IMG/VR virus record: IMGVR_UViG_3300037067_009442
Span: 1 to 64,000 of that record
Source: a virus
Taxonomy: Duplodnaviria > Heunggongvirae > Uroviricota > Caudoviricetes
Strand: one strand, 5' to 3'
DNA length: 64,000 nt
Under the pieces are notes generated by a model. The model had not been told where the DNA came from. It was given only the letters and a program-made list of their open reading frames with translations, and searched no databases. This document shows positions 8,386-55,886 of the stretch, in pieces. Position 1 is the first letter of the stretch, and each line of letters starts with the position of its first letter. Both the position numbers and the translations under genes were made by a program.

Positions 8386-8595
8386 TCAGCGAAAGATCCT
8401 AGCTACTTTACCCTTACCTTGCAAGGTAGAATGCTTCACGTCACGTTGGTCGGAGGTCCCGCAGATCTCACACTCTCCTTTGCCGTGTTTGCATTCAGTT
8501 CTCGGCGGCCCTTCTGGGGGTCCGACTAAAACCTCAGTCATACCACCAAAACAGTCGAAGGGGCCATAGATTCTTGGCCAGCGATGTTTACTCAT
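8386..8595 (-). CDS. small Cys/His protein
   Basis: CKH...CEIC; ATGA coupling. Confidence 0.6.
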   Translation of the reverse strand: MSKHRWPRIYGPFDCFGGMTEVLVGPPEGPPRTECKHGKGECEICGTSDQRDVKHSTLQGKGKVARIFR

Positions 8596-9101
8596 GGGAC
8601 ACTCATAAGGTAGAAGTAAGGGGGAGTACTTGCACCTGTTACCTGCACTTCAAGGTCTTGAACCCTTAGCTGTAAGGATTGAACTGCACTGATCAGGGTG
8701 TTGATTGTCGAACCATATCTAGTTGCATTCTCAGTCAGGACTTGCACCTCTCTTTGAAGAACACTGATGGTATCATCTATCTGGTAAGAAGAGTTGCCCG
8801 AGGAGACAGAGATGTTGCTAAGATCTCCGCCACCGGTGATCCCTACTCCAAATTGGATAGGAGCTACAAGTTGCGAGGGATCTCTATCTACATAGTCCCT
8901 CATGACAGCATCGTTTGGGATCCCTATCGCATACCTTAGTGAATCTACCGCATCACTTCTAGGGGGCACTCCTGTCATCTCCTCAATGAGATGGTGCCTT
9001 CGAGCAACCTCTTTCTGTAGGTCCTGAGCGAAAGTAAGGGGTTTAATTTCAACCACCTTGGGTCTAATTTCGGCCCAATACTCCTCAAGATCGTCAGCCA
9101 T
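8592..9101 (-). CDS. hypothetical protein with N-terminal DDLEEYW tag
   Basis: Likely start MADDLEEYW at 9101, 9 nt after GGTGTA box; C-terminal coiled coil. Confidence 0.75.
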   Translation of the reverse strand: MADDLEEYWAEIRPKVVEIKPLTFAQDLQKEVARRHHLIEEMTGVPPRSDAVDSLRYAIGIPNDAVMRDYVDRDPSQLVAPIQFGVGITGGGDLSNISVSSGNSSYQIDDTISVLQREVQVLTENATRYGSTINTLISAVQSLQLRVQDLEVQVTGASTPPYFYLMSVP

Positions 9102-9166
9102 CCAGGCTATTACACCAGTAGCCTTGTCTTTTTTGAAACCTTGGTGTAGGGTTTGGCACCAAAACC

Positions 9167-9796
9167 ATGGATTACCCAGTGTATCTGTTATTCCTAGCCA
9201 ACCTAGCCGCCGCCTACCTCTACGGGTATAAGCGAGGCCATCGAGAAGGTATCGCAGTAGGTAAATCCTTGGTCTTTTCGTCCCCATCCGTGAGGCCATT
9301 CAGGCAAGGAGAGTCAATACCCCCTCCCCCATCGTTAGACTCAAGTGACCGCCTACCTCATACCAACCTAGCCGCCGCACTACCTAAAGTGGATTACCCT
9401 ATAGTGCTTGGAAACTACTCAATACTGAGGAATGGGGTGATCCTACGTGGGGAAAGTGAGATCGCTATTATCGATGACTCGCCTTTTGAGTTTGAGTGGT
9501 TACCAGATGTACAAAAGCTGAAGTCTGATGATGAGCACTGCCGCAAGCTAACTAGGTTATGGTTTGAGAGCTTCGGGGTTGATGATGGGTATACTCTCAC
9601 CCTCGAGGGTTATTGGGTCTCAAGGGGCGGGTTGTTCTGGAAGGGGGACCTCATTCTCGGTAGAGTAGAAGGAGGGGGTTACCATCAGTTCAATTGCGTC
9701 AACCAGTATTATGGGAAACCAACTCCGGAAGACATAGAAAAGTGCAAGAAGCTGTATGACCTTTGGTTGACTGAGTTTCTCTCGGATCGATCATGA
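9167..9796 (+). CDS. membrane-anchored hypothetical protein
   Basis: N-terminal TM helix; internally duplicated motif (C.KL..LW). Confidence 0.7.
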   Translation: MDYPVYLLFLANLAAAYLYGYKRGHREGIAVGKSLVFSSPSVRPFRQGESIPPPPSLDSSDRLPHTNLAAALPKVDYPIVLGNYSILRNGVILRGESEIAIIDDSPFEFEWLPDVQKLKSDDEHCRKLTRLWFESFGVDDGYTLTLEGYWVSRGGLFWKGDLILGRVEGGGYHQFNCVNQYYGKPTPEDIEKCKKLYDLWLTEFLSDRS

Positions 9797-9844
9797 GCTC
9801 TAGATTTGTAGCCCCTAACTTGACTGATTCGGGGTATAGGCAAA

Positions 9845-10162
9845 TTGATGGCCGAAGACACTAAAGTCCACCTCACCGACACCAAGCTCCTTGAAGAGCT
9901 CATCGATAGCGAGAAGCTCAACCCAGAGGAGGAAGAGGCGTTCGCAGGGATGCTGAAGGACCTCACCTCCAAGAAGTACCACAAGCTCACTCAACGTCAG
10001 CGAGTCTGGGCAGAACTCACTCACAAGAGGTTCGGTTTGGATCCAGGGTCCGCTAACCTCGTAAGCTCAGGTCAGGTGAAGGTAACCGAGAAGGAGCGAG
10101 CAGGGCTCCAAGAGTTCATCACCTCTCTGGGCCCCAAGAAACTCAGACCTCCAGGTCGCTAG
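9845..10162 (+). CDS. hypothetical protein
   Basis: Protein-like ORF. Confidence 0.7.
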   Translation: MMAEDTKVHLTDTKLLEELIDSEKLNPEEEEAFAGMLKDLTSKKYHKLTQRQRVWAELTHKRFGLDPGSANLVSSGQVKVTEKERAGLQEFITSLGPKKLRPPGR

Positions 10163-10258
10163 TGGTTCAACCAGTTATTAATCCCTGACTCTAATGGGTC
10201 AAAAAACTATTTTGACTAAAAAGTTGAGATTTGCTGCCCTTATGAGTAGTAGTAGGTC

Positions 10259-11485
10259 ATGCCAACTCGGTACCTAGCGATTGCGGGGGAGATTGATGTC
10301 GTTGAGATCATCGAAGAGGGTACAGGTGGGATCCCAACTACCTTCATCCCTAAGAACCCTGTTGTTGTATCAATAGTCAGGATGGGGTATACCTTCGTGG
10401 CTAGTAAAGACCGACTTTTTGAAGATCGGTCCAAGGCAATCTTAGAAGCTCAACGGCTACGTCAAGAAGAGCTCGAAAAAGAACGGAATACTAGAGGACT
10501 CATGGCGAAGAAAGCAAGTAAGCAATCACCGTCCCTAATCAATAGAGGGGCTATCCCGAGTCCAAACCTACCCATCTCTGTGATGAGCGGGAGAACTGAA
10601 CCCGAGGAGTTATTCCGAGCGGGTTATGGGGATCAAGAGGGTTTGGGTACTGAGGAGGGGTCCTCAAGTGAAGAGGAGGCTGAAGAGGTCAGGGTCTCTG
10701 ATACCTGTGATACGGCTGCCCCAGCTTCGAAGCATGCTAAGCCCAAGGACCTAGTCCAAAACATGCAAAAGGTGATCGGGGCCGATACCCTTACCTTGCA
10801 AGGGTTGTACGACAGGTTGCGGAGTCAGGGCTTAATGCCTATGGCCAGCAACCCTATCGAATACATCCGGTACCACCTGTCAAAAAACCGGGACTTGTTC
10901 GATCGTCCCGAGCGGACAACTGTCTGCCTATTTGCAGGTAACCCCTTCCTGGTGCCGGCTCACCGACCCCTACCTGTAATCGAGCCAGAAGAAGCTGCTG
11001 AGCAAGAAGAGCCTGCTGATAGTGAGGTACTCACTGAGCAAGAAGAGCCTGAGGGTGAAGTACCCACTCAGCAAGAAGAGCCTGCTGAGGTTGTAACGAG
11101 TGAACCCGAGCCGACTCCAGCTCCGAAGGCAAAGGGCAAGAAGGGTAAGGGTGCCTCAAAGGCTAAGGTGACGGAGGGAGACCCCGCCACAGAGAAGAAG
11201 CTCGACCCCTACCGTACTTGGAATGGACTGCAACTGGAGATTATCAACTCGGAAGCTGGTAGGTACGAGGACGCCAACCTTCTAATGGTCGAGCAGAAGC
11301 GAGAGGGGATGTGGACTTGCTCTATTACTGTCTCTGGGATCAAGGAGGTATTCAAGGGTGCGGCCTCCAAGAGGAGAGACATTGCAAGGATCTGGTCGGA
11401 CAATAAAGTCCGGGAGTACATGAACCGGATCAACATTGTCACTCATCGAATCGGGATCCCAGCCAAGGTGAAGGTTGATGCCTAG
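10259..11485 (+). CDS. multi-domain protein with putative winged-helix domain
   Basis: Follows class A-like promoter at 10223; central segment paralogous to 12105 ORF; EQEEP repeats. Confidence 0.7.
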   Translation: MPTRYLAIAGEIDVVEIIEEGTGGIPTTFIPKNPVVVSIVRMGYTFVASKDRLFEDRSKAILEAQRLRQEELEKERNTRGLMAKKASKQSPSLINRGAIPSPNLPISVMSGRTEPEELFRAGYGDQEGLGTEEGSSSEEEAEEVRVSDTCDTAAPASKHAKPKDLVQNMQKVIGADTLTLQGLYDRLRSQGLMPMASNPIEYIRYHLSKNRDLFDRPERTTVCLFAGNPFLVPAHRPLPVIEPEEAAEQEEPADSEVLTEQEEPEGEVPTQQEEPAEVVTSEPEPTPAPKAKGKKGKGASKAKVTEGDPATEKKLDPYRTWNGLQLEIINSEAGRYEDANLLMVEQKREGMWTCSITVSGIKEVFKGAASKRRDIARIWSDNKVREYMNRINIVTHRIGIPAKVKVDA

Positions 11486-12074
11486 CCTCTGGAAGGTCCT
11501 TGGCCCTATCGCGTTCAAGGTAATGAGTGACGGTAGAAAGCGGAAGTTCGTACGGTGCAAGTGTCAGTGTGGCACCGTACGATATGTCCAGGAAGCCTCC
11601 ATCACTTCTGGACGAAGCCGATCTTGTGGTTGCCTAAGTAAGGAACATGGTGGGGTTCACCTCATTACCCACGGTCACGCTATAGGCGGAAGAACCCCTG
11701 AATACAGCGCCTGGTCGGCGATGCTCTCTCGATGCCGCAACCCCAATGATCATAACTACCCTCGTTATGGTGAGGTTGGTATTACTGTCATCAAGCGATG
11801 GTATAAATTCGAGAATTTCCTTAGTGATATGGGACCCCGCCCTCCCGGTTGGAGATTAGGTCGCCGGAATGTGAGGGGTAACTACACTAAGCTGAATACT
11901 GCTTGGGTAACCTCCTTGGAGGATGCTAATAATCGCCGCAGGTCCTGCTACATTACTTACCAGGGTAGTCGAATGACCGCTGCTCAATGGGGTATTCAGA
12001 TCGGTGTGTCGCCGAGTACGATCGCCAAACGAGTGCAAAAGGGATTGAAGGGTAAACGAGCCCTATTCGGCTGA
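11475..12074 (+). CDS. phage HNH-endonuclease-family protein, active site possibly degenerate
   Basis: CKCQCG, SCGC, EY.AW..M..RC.NP, F.NFL.DMG.RP, GNY...N..W. Confidence 0.8.
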   Translation: MMPSLWKVLGPIAFKVMSDGRKRKFVRCKCQCGTVRYVQEASITSGRSRSCGCLSKEHGGVHLITHGHAIGGRTPEYSAWSAMLSRCRNPNDHNYPRYGEVGITVIKRWYKFENFLSDMGPRPPGWRLGRRNVRGNYTKLNTAWVTSLEDANNRRRSCYITYQGSRMTAAQWGIQIGVSPSTIAKRVQKGLKGKRALFG

Positions 12075-12104
12075 CGCGAACAGGCGACCGGTGTACCTGG
12101 TAGT

Positions 12105-13016
12105 ATGACTCAGATTAATACTACCAAGCAAGCTCAACTCAAAGCCAAGATCCTAAAGGCCGTTGAGGGTCTCGAGAAGGAGACCAAACTAAGCCGACTT
12201 CAATGGCTATCCATGCTAGTTGAGGGAGCTGTAGAGACAGCTCCCCGAGCACCTACTCAAAAGAAGCCTGAGTCAAAGAAGGGGAAGGTCCTGGCTCAGA
12301 AGGGGGCTGTAGAAGGTCTAGCTCACATCCACCTTACAACTCGCCAACTTGCTAAGTCCAAGCAGTTTATTGAGTTGAACCCTGATTGCGAGGTGGACGT
12401 TGATACCACTAGAGGTGAGAGGGAGCTGTACTACCCACCAAGTAAATTGGAGGTAGTTAAGAACTTCCTTGCAGGGTGTCCGACGGGTGGGCGCAAGAAG
12501 AAGTTTGACCTTAGTGACTTGAAGCCCTGTATCTCAGGGGAGTCCACTATGAAGGGCCTGATTAAGAAGAAGCCTAATTCAGGGACTACTCAGAAGCAGA
12601 AGGTGATCAACCAAGTCGTGGAGATCCTCGCCGACCAGTCAATGACAATTGACGAGATTTACGGCAGATTGAAGATGATCGGGTGCTTACCAGGCGGAGC
12701 GTGGCCCAAGGGTTCTTTAGTAACCTATCTCAGCAAAATACCTGACTTAGTTACACACGACAAGTCAGCAGGACTCTACTACAGCACCTCGAGGTACCAA
12801 GGCGAGACAGAGGTGCCTCAGACCTCCATAGCGGACACTCTTGCTTTCGAGACGAACTTGTCCCAGCTGGTAGATAGTGTTAAATTCGTGACTCCCGTGG
12901 GGTCTTCGGAATCAGTGGAGTCTCTTCCCGTGGAGCCCCCAGAGTCAATGGGTCCTCCGGAACCTACCAAGAATCCTTCATTACCTGGGTTCTTTCCTCA
13001 TTGGGCCCGAGGCTGA
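12105..13016 (+). CDS. putative DNA-binding protein (winged-helix-like)
   Basis: Lys-rich; V.EIL....MT..EIY.RL segment; GGTGTA box 9 nt upstream. Confidence 0.65.
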   Translation: MTQINTTKQAQLKAKILKAVEGLEKETKLSRLQWLSMLVEGAVETAPRAPTQKKPESKKGKVLAQKGAVEGLAHIHLTTRQLAKSKQFIELNPDCEVDVDTTRGERELYYPPSKLEVVKNFLAGCPTGGRKKKFDLSDLKPCISGESTMKGLIKKKPNSGTTQKQKVINQVVEILADQSMTIDEIYGRLKMIGCLPGGAWPKGSLVTYLSKIPDLVTHDKSAGLYYSTSRYQGETEVPQTSIADTLAFETNLSQLVDSVKFVTPVGSSESVESLPVEPPESMGPPEPTKNPSLPGFFPHWARG

Positions 13017-13031
13017 TGGTGTAATACGGTC

Positions 13032-13559
13032 ATGCTCAACAGGATCGAAGCTATTAACGGGGACATTACAACGCTCGAAGTGGACGTCATTGTCAACGCT
13101 GCCAATGAGAGAATGCTTGGAGGCGGAGGTGTCGACCATGCCATTCACGCAGCAGCGGGTCCAGAGCTCCTAGAAGCCTGTAAGATGTTCCCCGAGGTCA
13201 GGCCTGACGTGAGGTGTCCAACTGGAGAAGCTCGCATCACAGCAGGCTTCAAGCTCCCTGCTAAGTATGTAGTTCACACCGTGGGACCCATCTGGAAAGG
13301 TGGGTCTAATCGTGAACCTGAGCTCTTGGCATCCGCTTACCTAGAGAGTTTGAAGTTGGCAGCTAGCTACAAGTCGATCGCTTTCCCATCCATCAGCGCC
13401 GGTGCTTATGGATACCCAGCAGCTCATGCTTGTGAGGTAGCTGTCCGTACGATCAAGGACTTCCTTAAGACCAACACAAGCCTCGAAAAGGTTTACCTTG
13501 TGTCGTACAACTCACCAGTGATCCTTGAACTACTGACTAGGATGATCCAGGTTATCTAG
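13032..13559 (+). CDS. macrodomain protein (O-acetyl-ADP-ribose deacetylase / ADP-ribosylhydrolase)
   Basis: [35 protein letters not shown]. Confidence 0.95.
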
Positions 13560-14251
13560 ATCACTTCATCTCGTTCAAACCTAGTAGGAGGGGGCTCTCG
13601 AGAGGCTTCCTCTTTTTTAGGTTCAAGTCCAACTAGATGTCTTGGTACTTGAAGCCCATCGGTTAAGATCTGGGCAAGCTCGGTCTGATCAGTTTGTAGC
13701 GGAGTACGTCGGAACCTTCGAGCTTCATCTAACCTAAGTCTCTGCTCTGACGTTAGACCGGTAGCTTCGAGAGTCCTACGTCTTAGGTGTTGAGTTCGTT
13801 CTTCTGCTACCCTGGCAAGCTCCGTCGCTGAAGTAGGAGATCCCAGTATCCCTGGGGGTACACTAGGAGGAGGGTTGATAGCGTGCCTCTCAGTTAGGAT
13901 GTTGGGATTTTCAGAGAGAAACTCCTCTACTCTGTTATCCAACGCTGTCCGTAGAGAGCTAATAACTAAGTCACAGCTCTCTCGGTTCCAGGGCCCTTCT
14001 CCAAGTTGGGTACAGTTGAAGTTGGTGACTTGGTAAACCCACTGACTCATATCCACCAGTCCTGAGTCAGGATCAGAGTCAGGAGTCACCTCTAGGGTCA
14101 CCGAGATAGTAGGCACTAGAGCTTTTTGAAGGTTAGGAGGTTCACTAGCTTTCGCTCCCAAGGGAGCTTCGAGCTTTGAGTCTGCCACCCTATGATGTAA
14201 ACCACATTTCCAAGTGCAGCTACTAATGTTCCGAGTTGACTGAACCACCAC
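13556..14251 (-). CDS. hypothetical protein with C-terminal PTRFER tag (start uncertain)
   Basis: Ends [12 protein letters not shown]; true start probably downstream of listed start. Confidence 0.65.
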
Positions 14252-14361
14252 GCAGCATCGAATCCATATCGAAGGTATACTAGAGGGCTAGCGGCCATAA
14301 TCAGCAACAGGGGAATGGTAAACGTTCGGCACTTATAGAAGAAGGTAGTGACAGCGTTCAT
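14116..14361 (-). CDS. small two-TM membrane protein
   Basis: Two hydrophobic helices, basic C-terminus. Confidence 0.65.
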   Translation of the reverse strand: MNAVTTFFYKCRTFTIPLLLIMAASPLVYLRYGFDAAWWFSQLGTLVAALGNVVYIIGWQTQSSKLPWERKLVNLLTFKKL

Positions 14362-14374
14362 GGTAACCTTTAAG

Positions 14375-14410
14375 GGAACGGGACCTACTAGCTATAACAG
14401 GTCCCGTTCC
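14375..14410. terminator. 12-bp stem hairpin between genes
   Basis: ggaacgggacct ... aggtcccgttcc; no clear U-tract. Confidence 0.5.
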
Positions 14411-14433
14411 TCAGGTCGACTACGTCTTGCTAT

Positions 14434-14820
14434 TTACGAGTAGAGTGGGTCAAAGGAATTCGTCTGCTCTACTACAGCAGGCTTGGTAGGAGCCTTCTTG
14501 ACAGTCTTCTTGACAGTCTTCTTGACAGCCTTCTTGACAGCCTTCTTGACGGTCTTCTTGACAGTCTTCTTGACAGCCTTCTTGACAGTCTTCTTGACAG
14601 TCTTCTTGACGGTCTTCTTGACAGCCTTCTTGACGGTCTTCTTGACGGTCTTCTTGACGGGGATCTTCTTCACAGGCTTCTTAACACTCTTCATTTTGGT
14701 CTGGTCTTTCTGTGGACTGGCCACCTGGTCTTGTACACCGAACGATAGGTCTGGTATATCAAAATCGAAGTAGACGTCCGGTTGACTTACAGGCATACTC
14801 CGCTCGGTAAATGAGGCCAA
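14434..14820 (-). CDS. histone H1/Hc2-like Lys-rich repeat protein
   Basis: 14 tandem VKK[T/A] units; start may be the ATG at 14796. Confidence 0.8.
   Translation of the reverse strand: MASFTERSMPVSQPDVYFDFDIPDLSFGVQDQVASPQKDQTKMKSVKKPVKKIPVKKTVKKTVKKAVKKTVKKTVKKTVKKAVKKTVKKTVKKAVKKAVKKTVKKTVKKAPTKPAVVEQTNSFDPLYS
14491..14658. repeat. 12-nt tandem repeat x14 encoding VKK[T/A]
   Basis: Repeating cttcttgac core with variable 3-nt spacer. Confidence 0.9.
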
Positions 14821-14824
14821 CTAA

Positions 14825-15334
14825 ATGGCAGATCCTACAGATGTTGAGGACTATTGGAGTGATCGTCCCAAAAGAGAGCCAGAGCCCCTTAGGACTGTCC
14901 GAGTAAACGTCCTAGTAGATGGGGTCCCTATCGGCGATCCGTGCATGATGGTTGGTGTTCAAGAGGCTCCAATCTTCACTGAGATCGAAGACCAGGGTGA
15001 GCGAATAGTTGTAGGTCGAGTCACTAGGGCGGAAGCCGTGAATGCGGGTTTCAGACTTCTCTATGGTGGTGAAAGAGAAGATCCTCCTTCCAGGAGAGAG
15101 TTGATTAACGCAGCCGCCCAAGACCTAGTAGACGATCAGCAGGTACTGTACCTTCAACATGCAGTGCTGCTAATGGATAGCCTAAATGAAACTCTTCTTC
15201 GATCTGGAGTAGTTTACAACTTCGAAGCCTTAGTTGACTTGATCACTGATATGGCTGTCCAATTAGGTCAAGATGTGGGTTTCGTCAATAACGTAGTAGG
15301 CAGCATACCTCCCCTGGAGAATCCATTTGCCTGA
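14825..15334 (+). CDS. hypothetical protein with N-terminal DVEDYW tag
   Basis: MADPTDVEDYWSDRP. Confidence 0.75.
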   Translation: MADPTDVEDYWSDRPKREPEPLRTVRVNVLVDGVPIGDPCMMVGVQEAPIFTEIEDQGERIVVGRVTRAEAVNAGFRLLYGGEREDPPSRRELINAAAQDLVDDQQVLYLQHAVLLMDSLNETLLRSGVVYNFEALVDLITDMAVQLGQDVGFVNNVVGSIPPLENPFA

Positions 15335-16448
15335 AGACCACGACATAGAGTCCTTCTGGGAAGATCGGGTAAGGCTGCCAACGGAGGTACCTTCTACTAG
15401 AGGGAACCCCAGTGGTTTTGTCATACTTCGGATCTTGACAAGAGTTCGGGATAGCAATGCCCAACTTATCGGGAGTAGTCGAGCGAGAGGTCCCGCTGAG
15501 TTGATCCTTATCTTCCTAGAGGTTCGCATTAAAGAGGACGAAGGAAGATGTCCCGACTACAATGAGACAAGACAGTACTTTCTCGAGCTAGGTCAGACTG
15601 ATGCAGTTCGGGTCCTTGATAATATCGCTCAAGGGTACAGCTACCCTTCGACAGTGACTGGTGAGGATATTCTAGGTGTACTTAAGGGGCTCTACACTTG
15701 GAGGAGTATGGATGGTCTTGGGGCAGACATGATCATCCATAGGTACATTGAGGATTACTATAATGTTCAGCATCAGTACCCGAACATCTCTTTCATCATG
15801 GGGTACCTACTTGGGGAAGAAGTAGCTCGTTCTATCAGTAATAGCCAGCTGAGGGATCGTCTTCGGGAGCTAATTGTGATGGCAGGGGGGAGCATGGCCA
15901 TCGCTACCCCAGCACGTCTCCCTATGGCTCCCCCAGCAGAGTATCTAGGGTGGTCGACTGCAGATGAGTTAGACGGGATCGGTCAAGAACCTCCCTCTGA
16001 TGGTAGGCAAAGTGAGTTTGCCCAAGTAACTTGGGATCCGGATCACTTAGCCCTACCCGGACACATCTCCGCGAACGAGCGAAGAATCCACCTTAGGAGA
16101 TGCGCTCTTCTTTTAGATGCTTTGATCCAATCCTCCCATGAACTTGGGGACCCCTTGGACCCCCAAGCAGTTACTACTCTAACCCAAGACTTGGATCGGA
16201 GATCTCGAGGAGACCGAGTACTTCAGCCCAATTGGCAGCAGGGGTTAGTACATGAGTTCCGAATCGAATTCCTACCTCTTGACGCTCCGCCTTTAGAAGG
16301 TAGGCCCGCAGAACTCTATCCTCTACAGTCCTATGCTTACGGTCCCCCGATGGCTCCTTTGACAACCCAAGCAGCACCTTCACCTGAACCGGATCTTGTA
16401 GAGGTAAGGAGATTACTAGAAGATGACCCTACCAATTTCCTTGAATGA
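15327..16448 (+). CDS. hypothetical protein with N-terminal DIESFW tag
   Basis: MPEDHDIESFWEDRVR; shares a helical segment with 14825 ORF. Confidence 0.75.
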   Translation: MPEDHDIESFWEDRVRLPTEVPSTRGNPSGFVILRILTRVRDSNAQLIGSSRARGPAELILIFLEVRIKEDEGRCPDYNETRQYFLELGQTDAVRVLDNIAQGYSYPSTVTGEDILGVLKGLYTWRSMDGLGADMIIHRYIEDYYNVQHQYPNISFIMGYLLGEEVARSISNSQLRDRLRELIVMAGGSMAIATPARLPMAPPAEYLGWSTADELDGIGQEPPSDGRQSEFAQVTWDPDHLALPGHISANERRIHLRRCALLLDALIQSSHELGDPLDPQAVTTLTQDLDRRSRGDRVLQPNWQQGLVHEFRIEFLPLDAPPLEGRPAELYPLQSYAYGPPMAPLTTQAAPSPEPDLVEVRRLLEDDPTNFLE

Positions 16449-16635
16449 GGATGTTGAGTCGTACTGGGAAGCTATTCGACCTCACCTTAGTAGATCCGCT
16501 CAACTGAAGAGAGCTAAAGAAGAGTTCTTTCGGGAGAAATTCCCCAGCGGGTATCATATCCCTAAGATCAAATTCTACAATGACCTAAAGAACTACATCA
16601 AGGTCAAGGTACCCGGTCATGAGCGAGGATATTGA
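16423..16635 (+). CDS. small protein with N-terminal DVESYW tag (start possibly TTG 16441)
   Basis: NEDVESYWEAIRP. Confidence 0.65.
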   Translation: MTLPISLNEDVESYWEAIRPHLSRSAQLKRAKEEFFREKFPSGYHIPKIKFYNDLKNYIKVKVPGHERGY

Positions 16636-17047
16636 GGAGTACTGGGAGCGGTCTACTGCCTCCTCTGATGAGCCTATACCTGTGAGGGTACAAAAGGCCA
16701 AGCCACCGCCGACGCCCGCTCCTTACACTGAGGTAGAGCGAGAGAGGCTTTACATACAGAGTTCCCTTAGTCGCATCCCAAGTGAAGAAGAGCACCTAGA
16801 TCCAACACGAATCGAAGGGGCTCGCTACTTGAATGTCGTAGATAGGATGATGGCTAGTGACTACTTTGGCCACCCTTGTAGGGTATTTGCACCTCGATGG
16901 TTTGAGGTTCACCGATGGTTCTGGTGGCTGTTCATCGCCAATAGTTGGATGTCTGGGTACGAGTGGACTGCAGTAGGGAAGTTCCCATCAGGGTTCGTTC
17001 GAGCTATCAAGGAGAAGCCGGGTAGGTCAGAGGGGATACCCTGGTAA
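16619..17047 (+). CDS. hypothetical protein with N-terminal DIEEYW tag
   Basis: MSEDIEEYWERS. Confidence 0.75.
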   Translation: MSEDIEEYWERSTASSDEPIPVRVQKAKPPPTPAPYTEVERERLYIQSSLSRIPSEEEHLDPTRIEGARYLNVVDRMMASDYFGHPCRVFAPRWFEVHRWFWWLFIANSWMSGYEWTAVGKFPSGFVRAIKEKPGRSEGIPW

Positions 17048-28831: not shown

Positions 28832-29110
28832 CTAGAAGGTTAGGTGCCACCGAACCTCAAGGTCAATCATCATTTCTTCCCGTGACACCCCATGACCCTC
28901 ACAGTCCTTACAGGCTGGGGGGCTTTCTGGGCTCCCATCAGGATCATACCTTAGCTCGTAGTCATCAGCGAAGGGAGTAGGCTCCTGCCCGGATCCACCA
29001 CACCGTGGGCAATCCCGATTTAGAGCAGTCACGTCTACAATAGGAGCTGTAGTTGGAGGTAGCCTCACCGGACGTACGAGAGTCCAGTACTCTTCAACTT
29101 CGTCGGGCAT
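28832..29110 (-). CDS. DnaJ-type zinc-finger protein with N-terminal DEVEEYW tag
   Basis: CPRCGGSG...CKDCEGHG; MPDEVEEYWTLVRP. Confidence 0.75.
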   Translation of the reverse strand: MPDEVEEYWTLVRPVRLPPTTAPIVDVTALNRDCPRCGGSGQEPTPFADDYELRYDPDGSPESPPACKDCEGHGVSREEMMIDLEVRWHLTF

Positions 29111-41214: not shown

Positions 41215-41772
41215 TTGATGGCTGATGACCTAGAAGAGTACTGGGGGGATGTGCGTCCAGTAAGGATGCCCTCTGAGACTAAGCCAAAGCTTAATACCAA
41301 GAGCGAAGCAAGTGAGCCAGCTACTATCTCAGCAGCTCTAGTAAGTCTAGCTTGGAGAGTAGGCTTACCTCTCGATGCGCCTTGGGTGGACATTAGGGGA
41401 GCCTTACAAGAGCGTGGTTTAGCCCCAGCCTACCTTGGGGAGGATTTACCTTTCTTTGATCCTTACCACCCAGAGCTGGGTCTTAGTCAGGCTAGGTTTG
41501 TTGGAGTAGACGAAGCTGAATCGATGATCAAGGCTTTTGAGGAAGCTCACCCTGAATTCATGAGGACGGTAAGACTTCAGAAAGAAGAGGAAGCAGCGTT
41601 CGCAGACGTGGATGCTTTCCTTGACGCCAACCCCATTCTCGAAGAAATTATGTCATTACAGGGGGCCTACGTCTCTAGTATAACTACTAATTATGGCCCT
41701 GATGTTATAGTCGAGGAGCTTCCAGTTCAGTTTGAGTCTATTCGTTTAGGATCAGGTACTGAAGAACACTAG
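41215..41772 (+). CDS. hypothetical protein with N-terminal DDLEEYW tag
   Basis: MADDLEEYWGDVRPVR. Confidence 0.8.
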   Translation: MMADDLEEYWGDVRPVRMPSETKPKLNTKSEASEPATISAALVSLAWRVGLPLDAPWVDIRGALQERGLAPAYLGEDLPFFDPYHPELGLSQARFVGVDEAESMIKAFEEAHPEFMRTVRLQKEEEAAFADVDAFLDANPILEEIMSLQGAYVSSITTNYGPDVIVEELPVQFESIRLGSGTEEH

Positions 41773-48102: not shown

Positions 48103-48104
48103 TC

Positions 48105-48643: not shown

Positions 48644-48646
48644 ATC

Positions 48647-49087: not shown

Positions 49088-49455
49088 TGGAACCACACCT
49101 CCAACAATACCTCGATTGGTGGGCTGCTTCACACCCTAAGTCACTAAGCGCTGAAGCCACTCTAATCACCATAACCCGAAGCATAGAGACCCCATTGGGA
49201 AGGGTCGGTTTGATTAATGCTTGGGTGAGCGCTGCTCGGTTTGAGATCAATCAAACCGCTCGGCCCCTTGGGAATAAGTACCCTCAATCACTGGTCAACC
49301 AAGCAAACCACCTCCTTGGTATCCTGACACCTGAGGAGTTACAGAGCCAACCCGCCCTGAACCTACTGGATGCCTACAGGGTTTTGGTAGGGATATGCAA
49401 TACCTACCCTGATACCAGACCTACAAGATTTGAGCACGTCCTAGAGGAACTATGA
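49087..49455 (+). CDS. paralog 3 of T..GR family, C-terminal PTRFEH tag
   Basis: Ends TRPTRFEHVLEEL. Confidence 0.8.
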   Translation: MEPHLQQYLDWWAASHPKSLSAEATLITITRSIETPLGRVGLINAWVSAARFEINQTARPLGNKYPQSLVNQANHLLGILTPEELQSQPALNLLDAYRVLVGICNTYPDTRPTRFEHVLEEL

Positions 49456-50384
49456 TCACCAACGACGACAAACTTGAGATATTCGAGAGCTTCAGGATCG
49501 ACCGTAAGCTCCCGAAGTATGCAAAGCCGGCCTCGGTATACCGAACCTCCAAAAGCAAAGATGAGAACGTGGGGGAGGAGGACTGGGAGCCCGTGATGAT
49601 GAATGGGTCTGGGGTGAACATCTCCATCGGGGAGAAGATGGTCTTCGCTCCAGCTAACTTCAGAGGGGTCCTTACTACAGTTCAGGGACGGCCTGGTCTT
49701 TGGGCACAGAAGCCTGGGATCCTTGGTTGGTTTAAGTACCTAATCTACCTAGTCACACATAAGAAAGAAGAGAAGGCAGCCGCTAAGGTACCTACAATCT
49801 CGATAGCGGAGTTCTTCGCATCGGTGAAGAACTCAGTCCAAGAGCTCGAGCTGATTCAAGAGCGGGCTGCTGGCTATGAGAGGGCCATGGTTCAAGCTCA
49901 GAGCACAGGTCAGACTGCTCTACTAGAGAAGCTCAAGCAGGGCTTGGAGACCAACCGTAACGAGGGGCAGTTGGTTGCTATCGATAACCGGAAGTTCATC
50001 ACCGAAGAAGACCTGGTACGGTTTGTCAAGGTGGCCAAGAAGGGGCTTCGATTGGATTGGGTGGGTAACTTTACCCGAATGATTCCTCCCGAGATTGTCG
50101 AGAAGAAGATCCGGATGGACGAACTAGGGATCTTCGACAACTATGGAGTCCTTCACTACGACCCTGAAGCGAAGTCTTGGTCTGAGACCGAGCTAGAGAA
50201 GGCCAAAAGGATCCGAGACGCTAAGGATCCGATCCTCTTTGGTTTGATGGCCGGAAGTCGAAAACTATACTTCGTCGGGGACTGGGTTGACGAGCAATGT
50301 GACCTGACTCTAGAACAAATTGTGGACCAATTGGGGACTGACGTGGTAAAGCTTCTGGAAGCTCCCAATGAAGATAAAAGGTAA
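49452..50384 (+). CDS. hypothetical phage protein
   Basis: 310 aa; FDNY.VLHYDP, DPILFG, LYFVGDW.DE.CDLT. Confidence 0.8.
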   Translation: MITNDDKLEIFESFRIDRKLPKYAKPASVYRTSKSKDENVGEEDWEPVMMNGSGVNISIGEKMVFAPANFRGVLTTVQGRPGLWAQKPGILGWFKYLIYLVTHKKEEKAAAKVPTISIAEFFASVKNSVQELELIQERAAGYERAMVQAQSTGQTALLEKLKQGLETNRNEGQLVAIDNRKFITEEDLVRFVKVAKKGLRLDWVGNFTRMIPPEIVEKKIRMDELGIFDNYGVLHYDPEAKSWSETELEKAKRIRDAKDPILFGLMAGSRKLYFVGDWVDEQCDLTLEQIVDQLGTDVVKLLEAPNEDKR

Positions 50385-50715
50385 GGCTTTCGTCTCCGGT
50401 CCCTATAGTGCTGCTACTCCGGAAGGTGTAGCAGCTAACGTAGCTGCGGCTGTCAAGGTGGCTCAAGATCTCACTAAGCTGGGTTGGGTGGTGATATGCC
50501 CCAACTTCCAGTTGAACCCTCTTGCTGAACTTCAGGGCTACGACTTCTGGTTGGAGGCTGCGTTACTCCTACTAGGTGACTGTGACATCATGGTTATGGT
50601 CCCTGGGTGGGAGGTTTCAAGCGGAGCCAAGAGAGAACGAGCTCGGGCTCTAGTCCTTCGTGTTCCGATGTTTGAGACCATTCAAGAAGTGGAAGACTTC
50701 TCAGGGCGTAAGTAA
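50368..50715 (+). CDS. DUF4406/nucleoside deoxyribosyltransferase-like protein
   Basis: F.SGPYS...CD.....PGW..S.GA..E. Confidence 0.75.
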   Translation: MKIKGKAFVSGPYSAATPEGVAANVAAAVKVAQDLTKLGWVVICPNFQLNPLAELQGYDFWLEAALLLLGDCDIMVMVPGWEVSSGAKRERARALVLRVPMFETIQEVEDFSGRK

Positions 50716-50724
50716 GGTACCCTG

Positions 50725-51405
50725 ATGCCAGAAGATACTCCTCTCGTGGAAGAAGCTCACCTCTGCAACCTCTGTGGGTGCTCTCTCATCCTCGAACCTA
50801 ATACCGCCCCAGAAGGGCTCGTAGGTGCTGAGATCAACGGTGGGTACCACTCCACTCCTGGAAATGGATCCGGTGCTCTTGATGACGCCACCAAGTACGA
50901 GTTCTCACTTTGCGAGTTCTGTCTTGACTGGCTCTTCAAGCAGTTCAGGCTGCCTCCTAAGGTCGTTGCTTATGGTGAGGTTGAAGAGTACCGCCCTGCA
51001 GACCAAAGGGTCGCTGAGGACGAATGGCGGAGGAAGAAAGACACTTACTACGCGGAGGCTGCTCACAGGTCACTACTTCGAGGTAGAGTTAGTGCCGTGA
51101 CTGAAAAGGTATCGGTATTCGACGTACTGCGGCACTTTGGTAAATTTCAAGGCCAGGGGGATAAGGGAGTGCCCCTCCTTTGCCCTTCCCACAAGGTAGA
51201 TGGAAGAGAAGAGTGTAACCCCTCTGCTTGGGCACTCCCCTACACGGTACATGAAGGCCAAGAGTTGGCGTCTCATGTTTACTGCTATTCCTGTAAAAGG
51301 CGCTGGAGTGCTCATGAGCTTTGGATGGAGTTTAAGGGTGGGTTAGATCCTGCTCGGGCAGTAAGCGAGATGGAGCAAGCCTTCCCTGATAAGTCTGTAC
51401 TCTGA
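50725..51405 (+). CDS. protein with C-terminal primase-type CHC2 zinc finger
   Basis: VS.FDVL...LCP.H......PS....YCYSC. Confidence 0.65.
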   Translation: MPEDTPLVEEAHLCNLCGCSLILEPNTAPEGLVGAEINGGYHSTPGNGSGALDDATKYEFSLCEFCLDWLFKQFRLPPKVVAYGEVEEYRPADQRVAEDEWRRKKDTYYAEAAHRSLLRGRVSAVTEKVSVFDVLRHFGKFQGQGDKGVPLLCPSHKVDGREECNPSAWALPYTVHEGQELASHVYCYSCKRRWSAHELWMEFKGGLDPARAVSEMEQAFPDKSVL

Positions 51406-51611
51406 TGGACTTCTCCGCCGCTCTTCTACTACTCAAGGCTGGAAGGCAGATCAGGCGTAAGGGTAGGTCTATCTGGATCTATCTAGATAAGTATGGACAG
51501 ATCCGGGAACTAGACTTCGACTTTGGGATGCCAGACACGACCCTGTGGGAAGCCTCTCAAGAGTCATTGCTCGCCACAGATTGGGAAGTTAGAGAGCCCT
51601 CCTCCACGTAG
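51405..51611 (+). CDS. DUF2829 / Tad2-like anti-defence protein
   Basis: MDF..AL..LKAG..I.RKG...W.ASQ..LLA.DWEV. Confidence 0.7.
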   Translation: MDFSAALLLLKAGRQIRRKGRSIWIYLDKYGQIRELDFDFGMPDTTLWEASQESLLATDWEVREPSST

Positions 51612-51690
51612 CGAGCTTGAAAAGCTTCCATAGCCCTACTGTTGACATTTGACTAGCTCATGCCAGGAATCCAGTAAGAACGAGCCCTAA

Positions 51691-51960
51691 ATGAAAGCGA
51701 CGATAACCTACAGGGTTGGCCGCATTCCTAACCCTTGGAACAAGGAGCGGCGTGCAGCAGGTGAAGAGACTTGGTGTTTAATCAAAGTCACTACTCCTGA
51801 TTACGGGGATATACTGGAAGACCCTGTGGCTTTATTCAATTTAGATAGTGAGGCAGTAGCCTTCCAAGGGCACCTCATCTCTGTAGACCCAAAAGAAACT
51901 ACACTAAAGGTGGACCCTCTCCTAAAAGAAGCAGGGCTACTCAGGAAGAGGGGGATCTGA
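51691..51960 (+). CDS. hypothetical protein
   Basis: Packed ORF. Confidence 0.65.
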   Translation: MKATITYRVGRIPNPWNKERRAAGEETWCLIKVTTPDYGDILEDPVALFNLDSEAVAFQGHLISVDPKETTLKVDPLLKEAGLLRKRGI

Positions 51961-52193
51961 TGGCAACTCACGAAGAAGATCTCAAGCAGATCAACTCAGA
52001 CATCAAGCTCATTGAGGCCGAGATAGCTTCGAATGAAGAAGAGGTCGACCGTATCAACCCAATAGAAGGTACTCTCAAGAGGGAAACTTACCTTCGCCTT
52101 CGTAATAAGTACCTTCAAGAGAAACTCTCCAAATTGAAAGACCAAAAGAAGAGAAAGATCGAAGTAATCGATTGGGAGAGAAGGACTAGGTAG
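51960..52193 (+). CDS. small coiled-coil protein
   Basis: Coupled ORF. Confidence 0.6.
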   Translation: MATHEEDLKQINSDIKLIEAEIASNEEEVDRINPIEGTLKRETYLRLRNKYLQEKLSKLKDQKKRKIEVIDWERRTR

Positions 52194-52195
52194 CT

Positions 52196-52570
52196 ATGGA
52201 CGAAGTGAAGATCCAAGAACTCAACCCTGAACTCATTGTAGACGTACCTTGGAAGTACCGTAAACCATGCCCTGATGACATGGCCCTCGTGGTAGTCCAT
52301 GAGGGGCGAGGTGAAATACTCGACCACATTGGCCCTGGACTTCAGTATGTTGAGGATTCCGGGATGAGGAGCGACTACTTCGATCCCTGCTGTGAAGGTC
52401 AATCCTCTGGGGTCTTCATCTGGGAAGGGCGAATGGCAACCGAGACGTATGCCAACGGGGAGCATGATTACTACCTTGATGGTACCTTTCGCCCTGCGAC
52501 CAAGGAAGAATGGTACGCCTACCTTGAAGGAAAACCCCCTTGGGATCCCTCCCGTTGGGTTGAGGGCTAG
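52196..52570 (+). CDS. hypothetical protein, untagged paralog of 17408 ORF
   Basis: Shared motifs, no PTRF tail. Confidence 0.8.
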   Translation: MDEVKIQELNPELIVDVPWKYRKPCPDDMALVVVHEGRGEILDHIGPGLQYVEDSGMRSDYFDPCCEGQSSGVFIWEGRMATETYANGEHDYYLDGTFRPATKEEWYAYLEGKPPWDPSRWVEG

Positions 52571-52908
52571 CGCTTCTTCTTGGGGGTCTTATCCTCCCAC
52601 ACGAAGGCCTCCAACAACTCTCGGAAGTTGACCGGTACTAACTCGGGCTTGATCACAATGACTCGATTCGGGTACTGAAGTGTCCCAATCTTACTCAACT
52701 TGGGGGGGTATCGGATCGGATCCCAATGGGACATGTCATCATCGACTCCCACTACGGTGATTCGGTCCCTAGACCCTTCAATGTTAGGCTCTGCCTCACT
52801 GTTGACCTTGAGTACTCTGCCAATCTTTAGTGCGGCACAACGACCTAGTGAGTGACCATAGGCAATATACGACCCGACAATGATGTCTTGGCTGAGTTTG
52901 TCCTTCAT
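52567..52908 (-). CDS. hypothetical phage protein
   Basis: D..GQDI.VG..IAY-like start; GGTGTA box upstream. Confidence 0.7.
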   Translation of the reverse strand: MKDKLSQDIIVGSYIAYGHSLGRCAALKIGRVLKVNSEAEPNIEGSRDRITVVGVDDDMSHWDPIRYPPKLSKIGTLQYPNRVIVIKPELVPVNFRELLEAFVWEDKTPKKKR

Positions 52909-52915
52909 TGTCCTT

Positions 52916-52943
52916 ACTAATACACCGGATCTGGTGTATTAGT
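52916..52943. promoter_or_regulatory. divergent GGTGTA boxes in an 11-bp inverted repeat
   Basis: actaatacacc-ggatct-ggtgtattagt between divergent ATGs. Confidence 0.7.
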
Positions 52944-52951
52944 CACCTAGG

Positions 52952-53269
52952 ATGCAGACTATATCCGTCACCCTTCGAGCTATCGGGAACCTTGCCCTTC
53001 AGGTTGAGGTCTATGCAAAGACCAAGTTGGTCAAAGAGTGCCTGGAGAAAACTATAGAGGAGGCACTTGGTTGCTATGGCAAGGAAGGACCCGACTTCAA
53101 TGGGGGTTACCCTTTCTACCTCTTGAGTAAGACTGTGGAGGTACTTGAGATCAATCACCCCAATAGCAATTGGTATATCACCTACTGGGACACTAAATCC
53201 CAGCCCTGGGAGATGCGCTATAACCGGCCTGAGAAGATAGCTGTTGTCCCTCGGAAGAATGCGGGTTGA
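52952..53269 (+). CDS. hypothetical protein
   Basis: Follows GGTGTA box. Confidence 0.65.
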   Translation: MQTISVTLRAIGNLALQVEVYAKTKLVKECLEKTIEEALGCYGKEGPDFNGGYPFYLLSKTVEVLEINHPNSNWYITYWDTKSQPWEMRYNRPEKIAVVPRKNAG

Positions 53270-53289
53270 TCGGTGTAATGCAGCCCTAG

Positions 53290-54921
53290 ATGCCCGACTC
53301 AGAGATCCTTCTAGGTGATTGTCTTGCTGTACTGAAGACACTCGAAGCTGACTCCTTCGACTCAATGGTGACCGACCCGCCGGCCGGTATCGCCTTCATG
53401 AATAGTGAATGGGATACTTACAAGATGGATGCCTTTGAGGATATGCTCACCAAGGTATTCCTCGAGGCCTACCGAGTATTGAAGCCAGGAGCTCATGTCC
53501 TTGTATGGTCTATCCCAAGGACGGGGCATCGCACTGCTTGTGCTATTGAGCGGGCTGGGTTTGCACCTCGAGATGCCCTCGACAATGTGAAGGACCGCAG
53601 CCCTGAAGTTCAAGCCTTCCTCGAGAGTCTCACTGAGGAGCAGGTCGAGCTGCTTGTGCGAGCTGGACCTGCTGATGCCTTCGTGCTCCACATGTTTGGT
53701 CAGGGTTTTCCCAAGTCAATGAACGTGGGGAAAGCTATTGACAAGCTCAAGGGGGCTAAACGAACTAATTCCCTTGGGCTAAAGCCGGGGCACGAGCACT
53801 TAGAGAGTGCTGGCCTAGGATTCAAGAGTGCTTCCGCTGAGGGGTTCAGTAGGCCTTGGATGAAGGATCAGGAAGCAGTAGAGCAGTACCATCAGAAGAT
53901 GGCACCAGCGACCCCAGAGGCTGCTCAATGGGAGGGTTTTGGGACTGCACTCAAGCCAGCGGTTGAGACGTGGTGGCTAGCTCGGAAGCCCCTTCAAGAG
54001 GACACGGTTGCGGAGCAGGTACTAGCTACTGGGACAGGGGCTCTCAACATTGACGGTTGTCGTGTAGGTTATACTAAAGAAGTCCCAGGTAGTGCTAATA
54101 GTCATACCTCAGGTATAGTCTTAAGTGGATCAGTAGATGGTACTCTTAGAAATGAAACAGGAGAAGAGAGCGGCCATAACCCTAACATCGGTAGGTGGCC
54201 TGCAAACGTTGTTCTCCAACATGGGCCTGATTGTAAGCTGGTTGGAAAGAAGAAGATCAAAGGTAAGAAGCCGGAGAAGTCAGAGAAACCTACCGAGAAC
54301 AACCTTTATGGTAGCTATGGAAAGCGAAGTTTGAATGGATTCTATGCCTCTGAGGACGGTACAGAACCCGTTGATGCCTGGGAATGCGCCTCAGGTTGCC
54401 CTGTTAAAACCCTAGATGAGCAGAGCGGGAACCGTCCTGGAATGTCTGGGGGTGGTACTCATAGCAAAGACTATGAGGGTGGTTTGTTTGGTGGCATTGA
54501 TAGCGCCAATACAGCGAGAAACGACTCAGGGGGGGCGTCAAGGTTCTTCAATCAGTTCGAACCCGACATTGAAGCTCCTCCGTTCTTCTACACAGGGAAG
54601 ATCACCTCCTCTGAACGCAAAGAAGATCTTGAGGAAGAGGAGTTAGTCAACAAGCACCCTACGGTCAAATCTAAGAAGCTCATGCGTCACTTGGTCCGGT
54701 TGATCACTCCTCCCAAGGGGAGAGTTCTAGACCCCTTCTGCGGGTCAGGGAGCACTATCGTTGCTGCTATCGAGGAGGGGATGGTTGGTACTGGCATCGA
54801 ACGAGACCCAGGATTTCACGAGATTGCCACCAAACGGGTACAATCAGCCCTTCAGAAGCAAGAAACAGTCAAGCAAGCTCAAGAAGCTTGGGATCTAGCC
54901 TTCGGATTGGAAAGCGAGTAA
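53290..54921 (+). CDS. DNA N4/N6 methyltransferase (beta class)
   Basis: GDCL, TDPPA (motif IV variant), HPTVK, VLDPFCGSGST (motif I). Confidence 0.9.
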   Translation: MPDSEILLGDCLAVLKTLEADSFDSMVTDPPAGIAFMNSEWDTYKMDAFEDMLTKVFLEAYRVLKPGAHVLVWSIPRTGHRTACAIERAGFAPRDALDNVKDRSPEVQAFLESLTEEQVELLVRAGPADAFVLHMFGQGFPKSMNVGKAIDKLKGAKRTNSLGLKPGHEHLESAGLGFKSASAEGFSRPWMKDQEAVEQYHQKMAPATPEAAQWEGFGTALKPAVETWWLARKPLQEDTVAEQVLATGTGALNIDGCRVGYTKEVPGSANSHTSGIVLSGSVDGTLRNETGEESGHNPNIGRWPANVVLQHGPDCKLVGKKKIKGKKPEKSEKPTENNLYGSYGKRSLNGFYASEDGTEPVDAWECASGCPVKTLDEQSGNRPGMSGGGTHSKDYEGGLFGGIDSANTARNDSGGASRFFNQFEPDIEAPPFFYTGKITSSERKEDLEEEELVNKHPTVKSKKLMRHLVRLITPPKGRVLDPFCGSGSTIVAAIEEGMVGTGIERDPGFHEIATKRVQSALQKQETVKQAQEAWDLAFGLESE

Positions 54922-54924
54922 GCC

Positions 54925-55239
54925 ATGTCAGTACCTTCAATCACTACCCTAGAAGCTCTCCAAGCGGATCTCAATAATCGTCAGGGGGTTCACGAAATCC
55001 TGTTCGTCAACGGTAAGCCTTACGTAGGAGAGATGGAGTTCAATCGTCGCAAGGGCTTCCATTGGGACGGTGGGAGAACTGGCAGTGTCTTCATTACCCC
55101 TCACGTTGACACTGCAAGTGAAGTGGTGCTAGTAGACCTCCAGTACCTTCGGCTTCGAAAGTGCATTCTCGAAACCAACGTGATACCCTACGAGAAGAAG
55201 CAGGAATGGAGAGCTATTGATCTCCCGGAAGACCGATGA
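54925..55239 (+). CDS. hypothetical protein
   Basis: Packed ORF. Confidence 0.65.
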   Translation: MSVPSITTLEALQADLNNRQGVHEILFVNGKPYVGEMEFNRRKGFHWDGGRTGSVFITPHVDTASEVVLVDLQYLRLRKCILETNVIPYEKKQEWRAIDLPEDR

Positions 55240-55886
55240 TGGAAGAGGTTGAAGAGTTCTGGGAGGGTCTTCGCCCTGCTCCTCCCCCACCACCTACTCG
55301 AGAGGTCATTCGGGATGTAATAGCTGCTACTATGCGGGTGCATCTTCAGCCTCTAGTGGGTTCTCTTGCCACTGGGATGGAAGATATTTCTGTTGAAGTA
55401 CCTATTGATGTGTATCAACAGTTCATATTAGATGGGCATCATAATGCAGTGTCCATGGGATGTGCGGTTCACCAAGCAATAGAGGATCACTTTAATAGAG
55501 TAGAGGTGAGCTCACAGGTCACTGGGGCTTCGGTTGGTATCGTTAGCACCCATAACGCAGCAGAGAGTCCACTCATTGCCCCTGGGTTGACTCTAGAGGC
55601 AGCTAGGGAACTAGTCCACTCTGGATCGATCTTCCCTACTCGTACGGAAGAGGATCCCTCTACTGCTGTACCTCAAGTCATAGATAGGCTCAATGCGACA
55701 AATGTAGCTCAGTTGGAGCGAGCCTTTGATGAACTTGGGATCCCTACTCACATTGAGTTTCAACGGGCTGTAGGACATGGTGAGCTGGGTCTACTTCAGA
55801 TTGACTTACTCGGCCGCCAACCCCCTGGGACAGGCGTCGAGAACGTCAGTAACGGCACCAGGATCAACATTCGAATCCCTGAATGA
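55236..55886 (+). CDS. hypothetical protein with N-terminal EEVEEFW tag
   Basis: MEEVEEFWEGLRPAPPP. Confidence 0.75.
   Translation: MMEEVEEFWEGLRPAPPPPPTREVIRDVIAATMRVHLQPLVGSLATGMEDISVEVPIDVYQQFILDGHHNAVSMGCAVHQAIEDHFNRVEVSSQVTGASVGIVSTHNAAESPLIAPGLTLEAARELVHSGSIFPTRTEEDPSTAVPQVIDRLNATNVAQLERAFDELGIPTHIEFQRAVGHGELGLLQIDLLGRQPPGTGVENVSNGTRINIRIPE

Follow-up and report, generated by a model that had tools for sequence, protein, structure and literature searches.

A short acidic peptide at the N-terminus of many dissimilar proteins in a clade of huge phages

Why should eight proteins, encoded on both strands of one stretch of phage DNA, all begin with the same short peptide? The question is raised by the first 64,000 nucleotides of the virus record IMGVR_UViG_3300037067_009442 (Caudoviricetes), which constitute the window analysed here. 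The peptide, referred to below as the tag, lies at the N-terminus and reads [D/E/S]-[ILV]-E-x-[YF]-W-x2-[ILV]-R-P, often followed by x-R-x-P. It was described in a first-pass annotation of the window, and all eight instances were recovered at their places, in frame and with a start codon 3-10 residues upstream. The observation is confirmed, is larger than first reported and reaches beyond the window: the complete 228,619-bp record (G000; GC content 51%, CheckV completeness 45%) contains 16 copies at N-termini, a weaker tag-like copy and an exceptional one near a C-terminus. The motif is undescribed in the searchable literature, in which no paper containing the motif strings, or the PTRFER string of a second tag discussed below, was found.

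Two relatives were used for comparison, a 145-kb fragment (G001) and the 512,571-bp record IMGVR_UViG_3300028654_000001 (G002), a complete phage with direct terminal repeats. G000 and G002 are distant kin with 65-75% nucleotide identity in conserved genes and partial synteny. When the regular expression of the first-pass annotation was applied to the whole of G000, 13 matches were obtained, all of them at the start of an open reading frame (ORF) and none in another frame. A hidden Markov model (HMM) built from these matches returned 13 hits above 16 bits, followed by three further N-terminal copies, of which two scored 13-15 bits and the third 8.7 bits; all other matches in G000 scored 8.7 bits or less. 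The simplified pattern [ILV][ED].[YF]W...RP was observed 13 times in G000 and 17 times in G002, against 0.04 and 0.09 occurrences, respectively, expected from composition. The reported N-terminal placement holds with a single genomic exception, NDESLEAYWATIRP, which occupies residues ~78-91 of a 103-residue zinc-ribbon protein (G000 165589-165900, L006:11589-11900, minus strand). This ORF overlaps the next one by 29 nt, and the copy may be a fusion or frameshift remnant. A looser scan added the weak copy SLDRFWGDLRP at residues 21-30 of a 106-residue protein (G000 89747-90067, L002:7747-8067, minus strand), whose gene lies directly upstream of a 656-residue Cas12m-like gene. Every copy other than these two has its start codon 3-10 residues upstream.

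The anatomy of the tag was derived from 55 non-redundant copies, the first hydrophobic residue being counted as position 1. This residue is I, L or V and is preceded by D, E or S at positions -1 and 0. E occupies position 2 in 51 of the 55 copies, S, E or D position 3 and Y or F position 4, and W is found at position 5 in all 55. These are followed by E or D at position 6 and by I, V or L at position 8, the core W-x-x-[ILV] being found in 45 of 55 copies. Further along, R is found at position 9 in 48, P at position 10 in 41, R at position 12 in 30 and P at position 14 in 23 of the 55. W is thus invariant, and E at position 2 and the R-P pair come close to it. The tag variants of the two genomes are E-E-[YF]-W in G000 and E-S-Y-W-E-G in G002. 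The hydrophobic residues at positions 1, 4, 5 and 8 fall on one face of a helix, and the net charge of the tag is -4 to -6. At 100 degrees the hydrophobic moment amounts to 0.49, compared with 0.32 +/- 0.15 for shuffled sequences, and at 180 degrees to 0.15, a low beta periodicity. The acidic amphipathic helix proposed in the first-pass annotation fits these values. Helix-spaced anchors and flanking disorder, as in amphipathic helical docking motifs of the short linear motif type, are both found, Pro-rich spacers following the tag. Such a spacer had been described as usual, which is correct, but it is not universal, since the 20 residues after the tag contain between 0 and 6 prolines. A Sec, Tat or lipoprotein signal peptide, which would call for a positive n-region and then a hydrophobic h-region at least 10 residues long, was rejected on account of the charge, the lack of a hydrophobic run and the Pro-rich or charged residues that follow.

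The copies are conserved as peptides and not as DNA. Identity among the G000 copies is 70% at codon positions 1 and 2 and 37% at position 3; the same residue is encoded by the same codon in 34% of comparisons, and Arg is encoded by all six codons, CGN and AGR alike. The varied synonymous codons of the original description are thus borne out. Because the first two codon positions are conserved, the third is near random and all Arg codons are used, selection acts on the peptide. Such purifying selection on amino acids implies that the motif is translated, which answers the objection that the true starts might lie downstream of it. The 75 nt upstream of the copies are unrelated, with at least three different ribosome-binding contexts, and a mobile 5' cassette or another element acting at the DNA or RNA level was rejected, since neither the synonymous sites nor these upstream sequences are conserved.

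A translated peptide at the very start of an ORF could act on the ribosome itself. W...R-P(-P) would then slow or arrest translation from within the exit tunnel and co-regulate the tagged genes. The arrest peptides TnaC and SecM depend on Trp and a C-terminal Pro, and the invariance of W and R-P, together with the R-P-P spelling of some copies, would agree with such a role. However, R-P-P occurs in a minority of copies, the acidic amphipathic face is left unexplained and one copy lies near a C-terminus. Moreover, the spacing from W to P is 5 residues in the tag, whereas the arrest peptides known to us are longer and have a spacing of about 11-12 residues. We consider this explanation highly improbable.

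The bodies that follow the tag were compared after the tag had been trimmed off. Among the 17 carriers of G000, no two bodies matched each other in BLAST below E = 0.01, the weak matches at E 0.01-0.03 including a shared C-terminal domain, and no untagged paralogue of any of the 17 bodies was found in the genome. Taken from all sources, ~87 carriers fall into roughly 40 BLAST groups. The claim of unrelated bodies is supported by these groups and needs one correction, as the window protein encoded at 55236-55886 shares its C-terminal domain with three carriers outside the window. The annotation of the carriers is sparse and comprises zinc fingers, HNH-associated repeats resembling helix-turn-helix (HTH) motifs, one DUF and three PHROGs; in a census of 34 carriers, HNH_repeat was found in 2, a weak Sigma70_r3 match in 2, DUF7448 in 1 and three PHROGs of no assigned function. 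In the alignment of carriers, similarity ends abruptly after the R-P or x-R-x-P end of the tag. Comparison of eight orthologue pairs revealed far stronger conservation of the tag than of the body in four (for example, 13/13 identical residues versus 56%, and 11/13 versus 32%) and comparable conservation in the other four. The zinc-finger body encoded at 28832-29110 occurs with the tag in G000, and a homologous ORF without the tag is present in G002, which indicates that the tag is modular.

Some of the carriers, about 30% (27 of 87), nevertheless belong to one family, recognised by the C-terminal domain in which they end. This domain comprises ~65 residues, a helix with L..L...F..LG followed by four strands, with an invariant L-G. 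In G000 it is present in exactly four proteins, all four of them tagged: the window protein at 55236-55886, which scores 62.6 bits with the HMM of the domain, and three at loci outside the window. Every complete protein with the domain found in the database search likewise starts with the tag. The family has many paralogues, whose middle parts are highly variable. Two AlphaFold2 models of the domain reached a pLDDT of 61-62 (~61), and a wide fold search of the PDB returned nothing above Z 4.5. The domain is undescribed, confined to this phage clade and always coupled to the N-terminal tag. A complex prediction of the tag with the domain gave a score of 0.00 in a run without controls and counts neither way.

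This coupling could mean that no common reader exists and that the tag is the N-terminal element of an old tag-plus-C-terminal-domain family, recombined onto other genes and serving an intrinsic role such as folding, solubility or domain partnering. In line with this explanation, all complete domain proteins are tagged, 27 of 87 carriers contain the domain, and the numerous paralogues of the family differ widely in their middle parts. On the other hand, the domain is missing from ~60 carriers, which make up roughly 30 groups, the randomised synonymous sites indicate copies that are old and separately maintained, and the upstream DNA differs between copies. We regard this explanation as improbable. 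The related objection that all carriers represent one diverged family is right as far as the domain proteins are concerned; full-length homology was not found, and at least 30 other body groups are headed by the tag, so the tag is not simply the conserved end of one such family.

The distribution of the tag is narrow. A search of IMG/VR with a degenerate DNA pattern revealed three relatives, and a second pattern two more short contigs. The tag profile matched 14 times in G001 and 26 times in G002, nearly always 4-9 residues from a start codon, and a scan of the whole G002 genome gave at least 27 copies. A word-indexed search of 5.8 billion proteins, made with 40-residue N-terminal segments, returned 35 proteins, all on contigs of the clade; these contigs range up to 297-512 kb, and one further contig, of 19.8 kb, is in an NCBI assembly. 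A pattern scan of 185,579 prokaryote species gave 11 matches, all internal, in unrelated proteins and attributable to chance, and offered no clue to the host. From the restriction of the 35 proteins to clade contigs and a prokaryote scan that gave chance matches alone we conclude that the tag is private to a rare clade of huge phages, roughly 0.5 Mb in size. In collections of phages and plasmids, neither the window DNA nor a 565-residue carrier found a match.

What, then, could such a peptide do? We tentatively favour, with a probability of about 0.4, a cytoplasmic docking label for a common hub. The tag would be a portable N-terminal short linear motif of ~17 residues, built from an acidic cap, the hydrophobic face [ILV]-E-x-[YF]-W-x-x-[ILV] and an R-P stop, often extended by x-R-x-P towards a Pro-rich spacer. 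During infection, small phage proteins of many unrelated kinds would be attached through it to a single hub that they have in common, for example a chaperone, an unfoldase or a machine of the host, and the carriers would be handled as a group. Binding as such, a single partner and action in the cytoplasm rather than in the virion are what we infer from the motif and its carriers. In favour of this reading we count the enrichment of the copies and their position, the selection on the peptide, its conservation pattern, the diversity and modular exchange of the bodies, the helical periodicity and charge, the confinement to the clade and the location of the tagged genes in the accessory half of G002. 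Possible readers are encoded by the clade itself, namely Cdc48-like AAA+ ATPases and J-domain proteins, and were likewise counted for docking.

A classic-clade AAA+ ATPase of 396 residues is encoded in the window at 56652-57842 (plus strand), beside the tagged gene 55236-55886. Its residues 205-376 are Cdc48/AFG2-like, and its N-terminal ~160-200 residues are without relatives, the first 158 not being conserved in the G002 orthologue. G002 gave six AAA-domain matches, and a single Cdc48-like protein of 981 residues (L068:11481-14426) accounts for two of these. Two J-domain paralogues of G000 (119379-120704 and 164130-165227, both plus strand) have the HPD motif and, joined by a Pro-rich linker, a C-terminal domain of ~300 residues; one of them is 70% identical to its G002 homologue, and the other, 164130-165227, sits between two tagged genes. 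The full-length J-domain family comprises 177 cluster representatives at E <= 1e-10 in metagenomes.

Several observations weigh against the docking label. The ATPase at 56652-57842 was set aside as its reader, since its N-terminal 158 residues vary while the tag is conserved, and the J-domain protein at 119379-120704 is weakened as a specific reader because its family is far more widespread than the tag. The near-strict N-terminal position fits threading, cleavage or co-translational capture at least equally well; docking alone would permit any position in a protein, and the restriction therefore counts on the other side. Furthermore, four to five copies without R-P persist in orthologues, and the data do not require one common binding site.

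The same ATPases bring to mind a timing degron, by which the carriers would be handed to an AAA+ protease or unfoldase of host or phage and an early set of proteins would be removed or remodelled together. Terminal peptide tags such as ssrA and the N-terminal ClpX motifs are the usual handles of AAA+ machines, and several classic-clade members are encoded by the clade, as described above. Yet family searches of G000 and G002 found no match for ClpP (nor for a beta-clamp or Terminase_6N), and the tag is strongly acidic, unlike the N-terminal ClpX motifs of which we know. The N-domain of the ATPase beside the tagged gene is not conserved, and the species scan described above found no tag in host-type genomes. 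A degron function thus appears decidedly improbable.

A more serious competitor to the docking label is a signal for loading into the virion. The nearest published concept is the capsid-targeting sequence (CTS) of phage T4, and the tag would act in a similar way. The carriers would be taken into the prohead or particle and ejected with the DNA, the tag perhaps being cut by a protease. About ten residues at the N-terminus are enough for unrelated proteins to be loaded in T4 (PMC3012670, PMC9958956), and many ejection proteins are packaged by giant phages, SPN3US among them (PMC7411985). The T4 CTS, carried by IPI, IPII and IPIII, is likewise a short portable N-terminal peptide that precedes the functional body of unrelated phage proteins (PMC3012670, PMC9958956), and a short N-terminal peptide common to unrelated proteins of one phage is exactly what was found here. 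The two differ in other respects: their sequences are unrelated, the T4 CTS is cut after Glu by the prohead protease gp21, and the T4 carriers are proven head contents, whereas the present tag is known from sequence alone, has far more carriers (17-27 per genome) and belongs to genes outside the structural region. Most carriers are small, acidic ORFans, some of which contain zinc-finger or HTH-like repeats and could act once they have arrived, and a strictly N-terminal, short tag followed by a flexible Pro-rich spacer would suit loading.

A candidate protease for this purpose is encoded in G000, a papain-family (C1) cysteine protease (174757-175569, L007:2757-3569, plus strand). At 75% identity with the G002 homologue, no protein of the region common to the two genomes is better conserved, and such an enzyme is unusual for a phage. 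Papain-like proteases prefer a hydrophobic residue at P2 and Arg at P1, and the [ILV]-R of the tag would fit such a site. However, the Pro directly after the Arg makes a poor cleavage site for most proteases, and several carriers comprise only 59-100 amino acids. The family PF03420 (T4 prohead protease) gave no match in G000 or G002, which says little, as the search controls were silent too. Genomic position also speaks against loading: in G002, the portal is encoded within 300-450 kb, together with one tail fibre, a helicase and ribonucleotide reductase, while the tagged genes are found in the other, accessory half (18-243 kb, and 508 kb), away from the portal and tail genes. It is this accessory half that G000 matches. 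Virion loading can be considered a possible but unlikely function of the tag.

Two further known systems were compared with the tag. The phi-x-x-phi-phi acidic docking helices (p53 transactivation domain with MDM2) and the LIR/AIM motifs W-x-x-[ILV] are eukaryotic, have known receptors and occur anywhere in a disordered region. Like the tag, they set aromatic and aliphatic anchors (i, i+3, i+4 and i+7) between acidic residues; in contrast, the tag is bacterial-viral, lies nearly always at the extreme N-terminus and ends in R-P. The second comparison is with the MNRYDIALGKKPPP tag of another huge phage (469 kb), which is also N-terminal, spans 12-14 residues, is followed by prolines and heads many unrelated proteins. 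That tag is basic instead of acidic, belongs to another phage group and heads the major capsid protein in some relatives; among the carriers of the present tag, no structural protein was seen.

The genomes under study contain a second peptide of this kind, the C-terminal tag PTRFEREDV(I/V), with 27 strict PTRFER-type tails in G000 and 40 in G002. Like the N-terminal tag, it is combined with a Pro-rich spacer and an unrelated small body and has many carriers; it differs in sequence, lies at the opposite end of the protein and shares no carrier with the first. As the first-pass annotation had stated, no protein has both tags, neither any of the 17 tagged proteins of G000 nor any of the 40 PTRFER-ended ORFs of G002. 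Since chance alone would give 2-4 overlaps, the significance of this exclusivity is weak; the further claim that the two tags form a sorting code does not follow from it, and a "two-address code" is here a hypothesis. The readers of the two tags are probably different.

The eight carriers of the window gave nothing above threshold against Pfam and PHROGs. The first (8592-9101, minus strand) comprises 169 amino acids, with the tag MADDLEEYWAEIRP at nt 9060-9101, a coiled-coil-like C-terminal part and a GGTGTA box 9 nt upstream of its ATG; in its relatives (P0019-P0030, P0035) 11 of 13 residues of the tag are identical, and the bodies are 32% identical. Four tagged genes follow in a row on the plus strand (14825-17047). 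The first of these, 14825-15334 (169 amino acids), has the tag MADPTDVEDYWSDRP, in which R-P comes one residue early. The next, 15327-16448 (373 amino acids), begins at a TTG and has the degenerate tag MPEDHDIESFWEDRVRLP; its homologues start with MPEDNEVESYWDH in G001 and MPDDNEVESYWDH in G002, their bodies are 34% identical, and the protein is without a Pfam, PHROG or usable ESM Atlas match. The third, 16423-16635 (70 amino acids), contains MTLPISLNEDVESYWEAIRP at residues 8-20 and is preceded by the ribosome-binding site AGGTAAGGAG; with 24.2 bits it is the top HMM match of G000. The last, 16619-17047 (142 amino acids), has the tag MSEDIEEYWERS, without R-P, and then a Pro-rich linker, whereas its orthologues in G001 and G002 have the full MTDDIESYWEGLRPPRKP, the body being 51-53% identical over 68 residues. 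The R-P ending given in the first-pass annotation is hence true of most window copies but not of all, as EDRVRLP stands in its place in the protein starting at 15327 and ERSTA in that starting at 16619, and the ending is shifted by one residue at 14825.

The remaining three carriers stand apart from this module. The protein encoded at 28832-29110 (minus strand, 92 amino acids) starts with MPDEVEEYWTLVRPVRLPP and continues into the zinc-finger body with CxxCxGxG, for which a sub-threshold match to DnaJ_CXXCXGXG was obtained. At 41218-41772 (plus strand), 184 amino acids with the tag MADDLEEYWGDVRPVRMP and an ORFan body are encoded. Finally, the protein at 55236-55886 (plus strand, 216 amino acids) has the tag MMEEVEEFWEGLRP, a PPPPP linker and the shared C-terminal domain at ~nt 55674-55883. 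Both relatives have the four-gene module as well, G001 at ~79-82 kb and G002 at 172.5-175.2 kb. In BLAST, the bodies of its second and fourth genes are homologous across all three genomes, and in G000 and G002 it lies within a conserved block. In both of these genomes it is adjoined by a gene for a Macro-domain protein (window 13032-13559, plus strand; E 8e-41), which is 67% identical to its G002 homologue.

Several other features of G000 were recorded. Besides the Macro-domain protein, it encodes an ADP-ribosylglycohydrolase, NUDIX, CoaE, a nucleoside hydrolase, NT5C and a cREC receiver domain, an enzyme set that points to a heavy outlay on NAD/ADP-ribose chemistry. Its gene content also includes two TnpB genes, methyltransferases and a helicase. 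Fourteen tRNA genes are clustered near 223-228 kb, and a putative ochre-suppressor-type tRNA with the anticodon TTA (ARAGORN; L008:9330-9418, ~199.33 kb) lies away from this cluster. A leaderless promoter design, GTTGAGA-N-TACGTAGGATAGATC directly before an ATG, occurs in 17 copies, five of them in the window (422, 26530, 30301 on the minus strand, 35514 and 36102) and 12 elsewhere in G000; none of the 17 directly precedes a tagged gene.

What has been gained at present is descriptive and consists of an undescribed motif, a C-terminal domain, likewise undescribed, that is coupled to it, and a conserved four-gene module of tagged proteins. The proteins of no assigned function in huge phages number in the hundreds, and if one label groups 20-30 of them, it would provide an experimental handle: a 17-residue bait for its reader and a list of proteins acting at the same place or time. 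Should it load particles, it would be usable for cargo loading, as the T4 CTS has been. A bolder and doubtful extension is that the clade runs its own protein-addressing system, in which a phage-encoded reader (a Cdc48-like AAA+ ATPase or a particle-loading apparatus) would sort 20-30 unrelated proteins to one destination. Another and larger set would go elsewhere under the PTRFER tag, and the tag-plus-domain family would represent the core clients or the scaffold of the first destination. If the reader is phage-encoded, the tag would reveal a virus-owned sorting or recruitment system in bacteria, beside a second, C-terminal one in the same genome.

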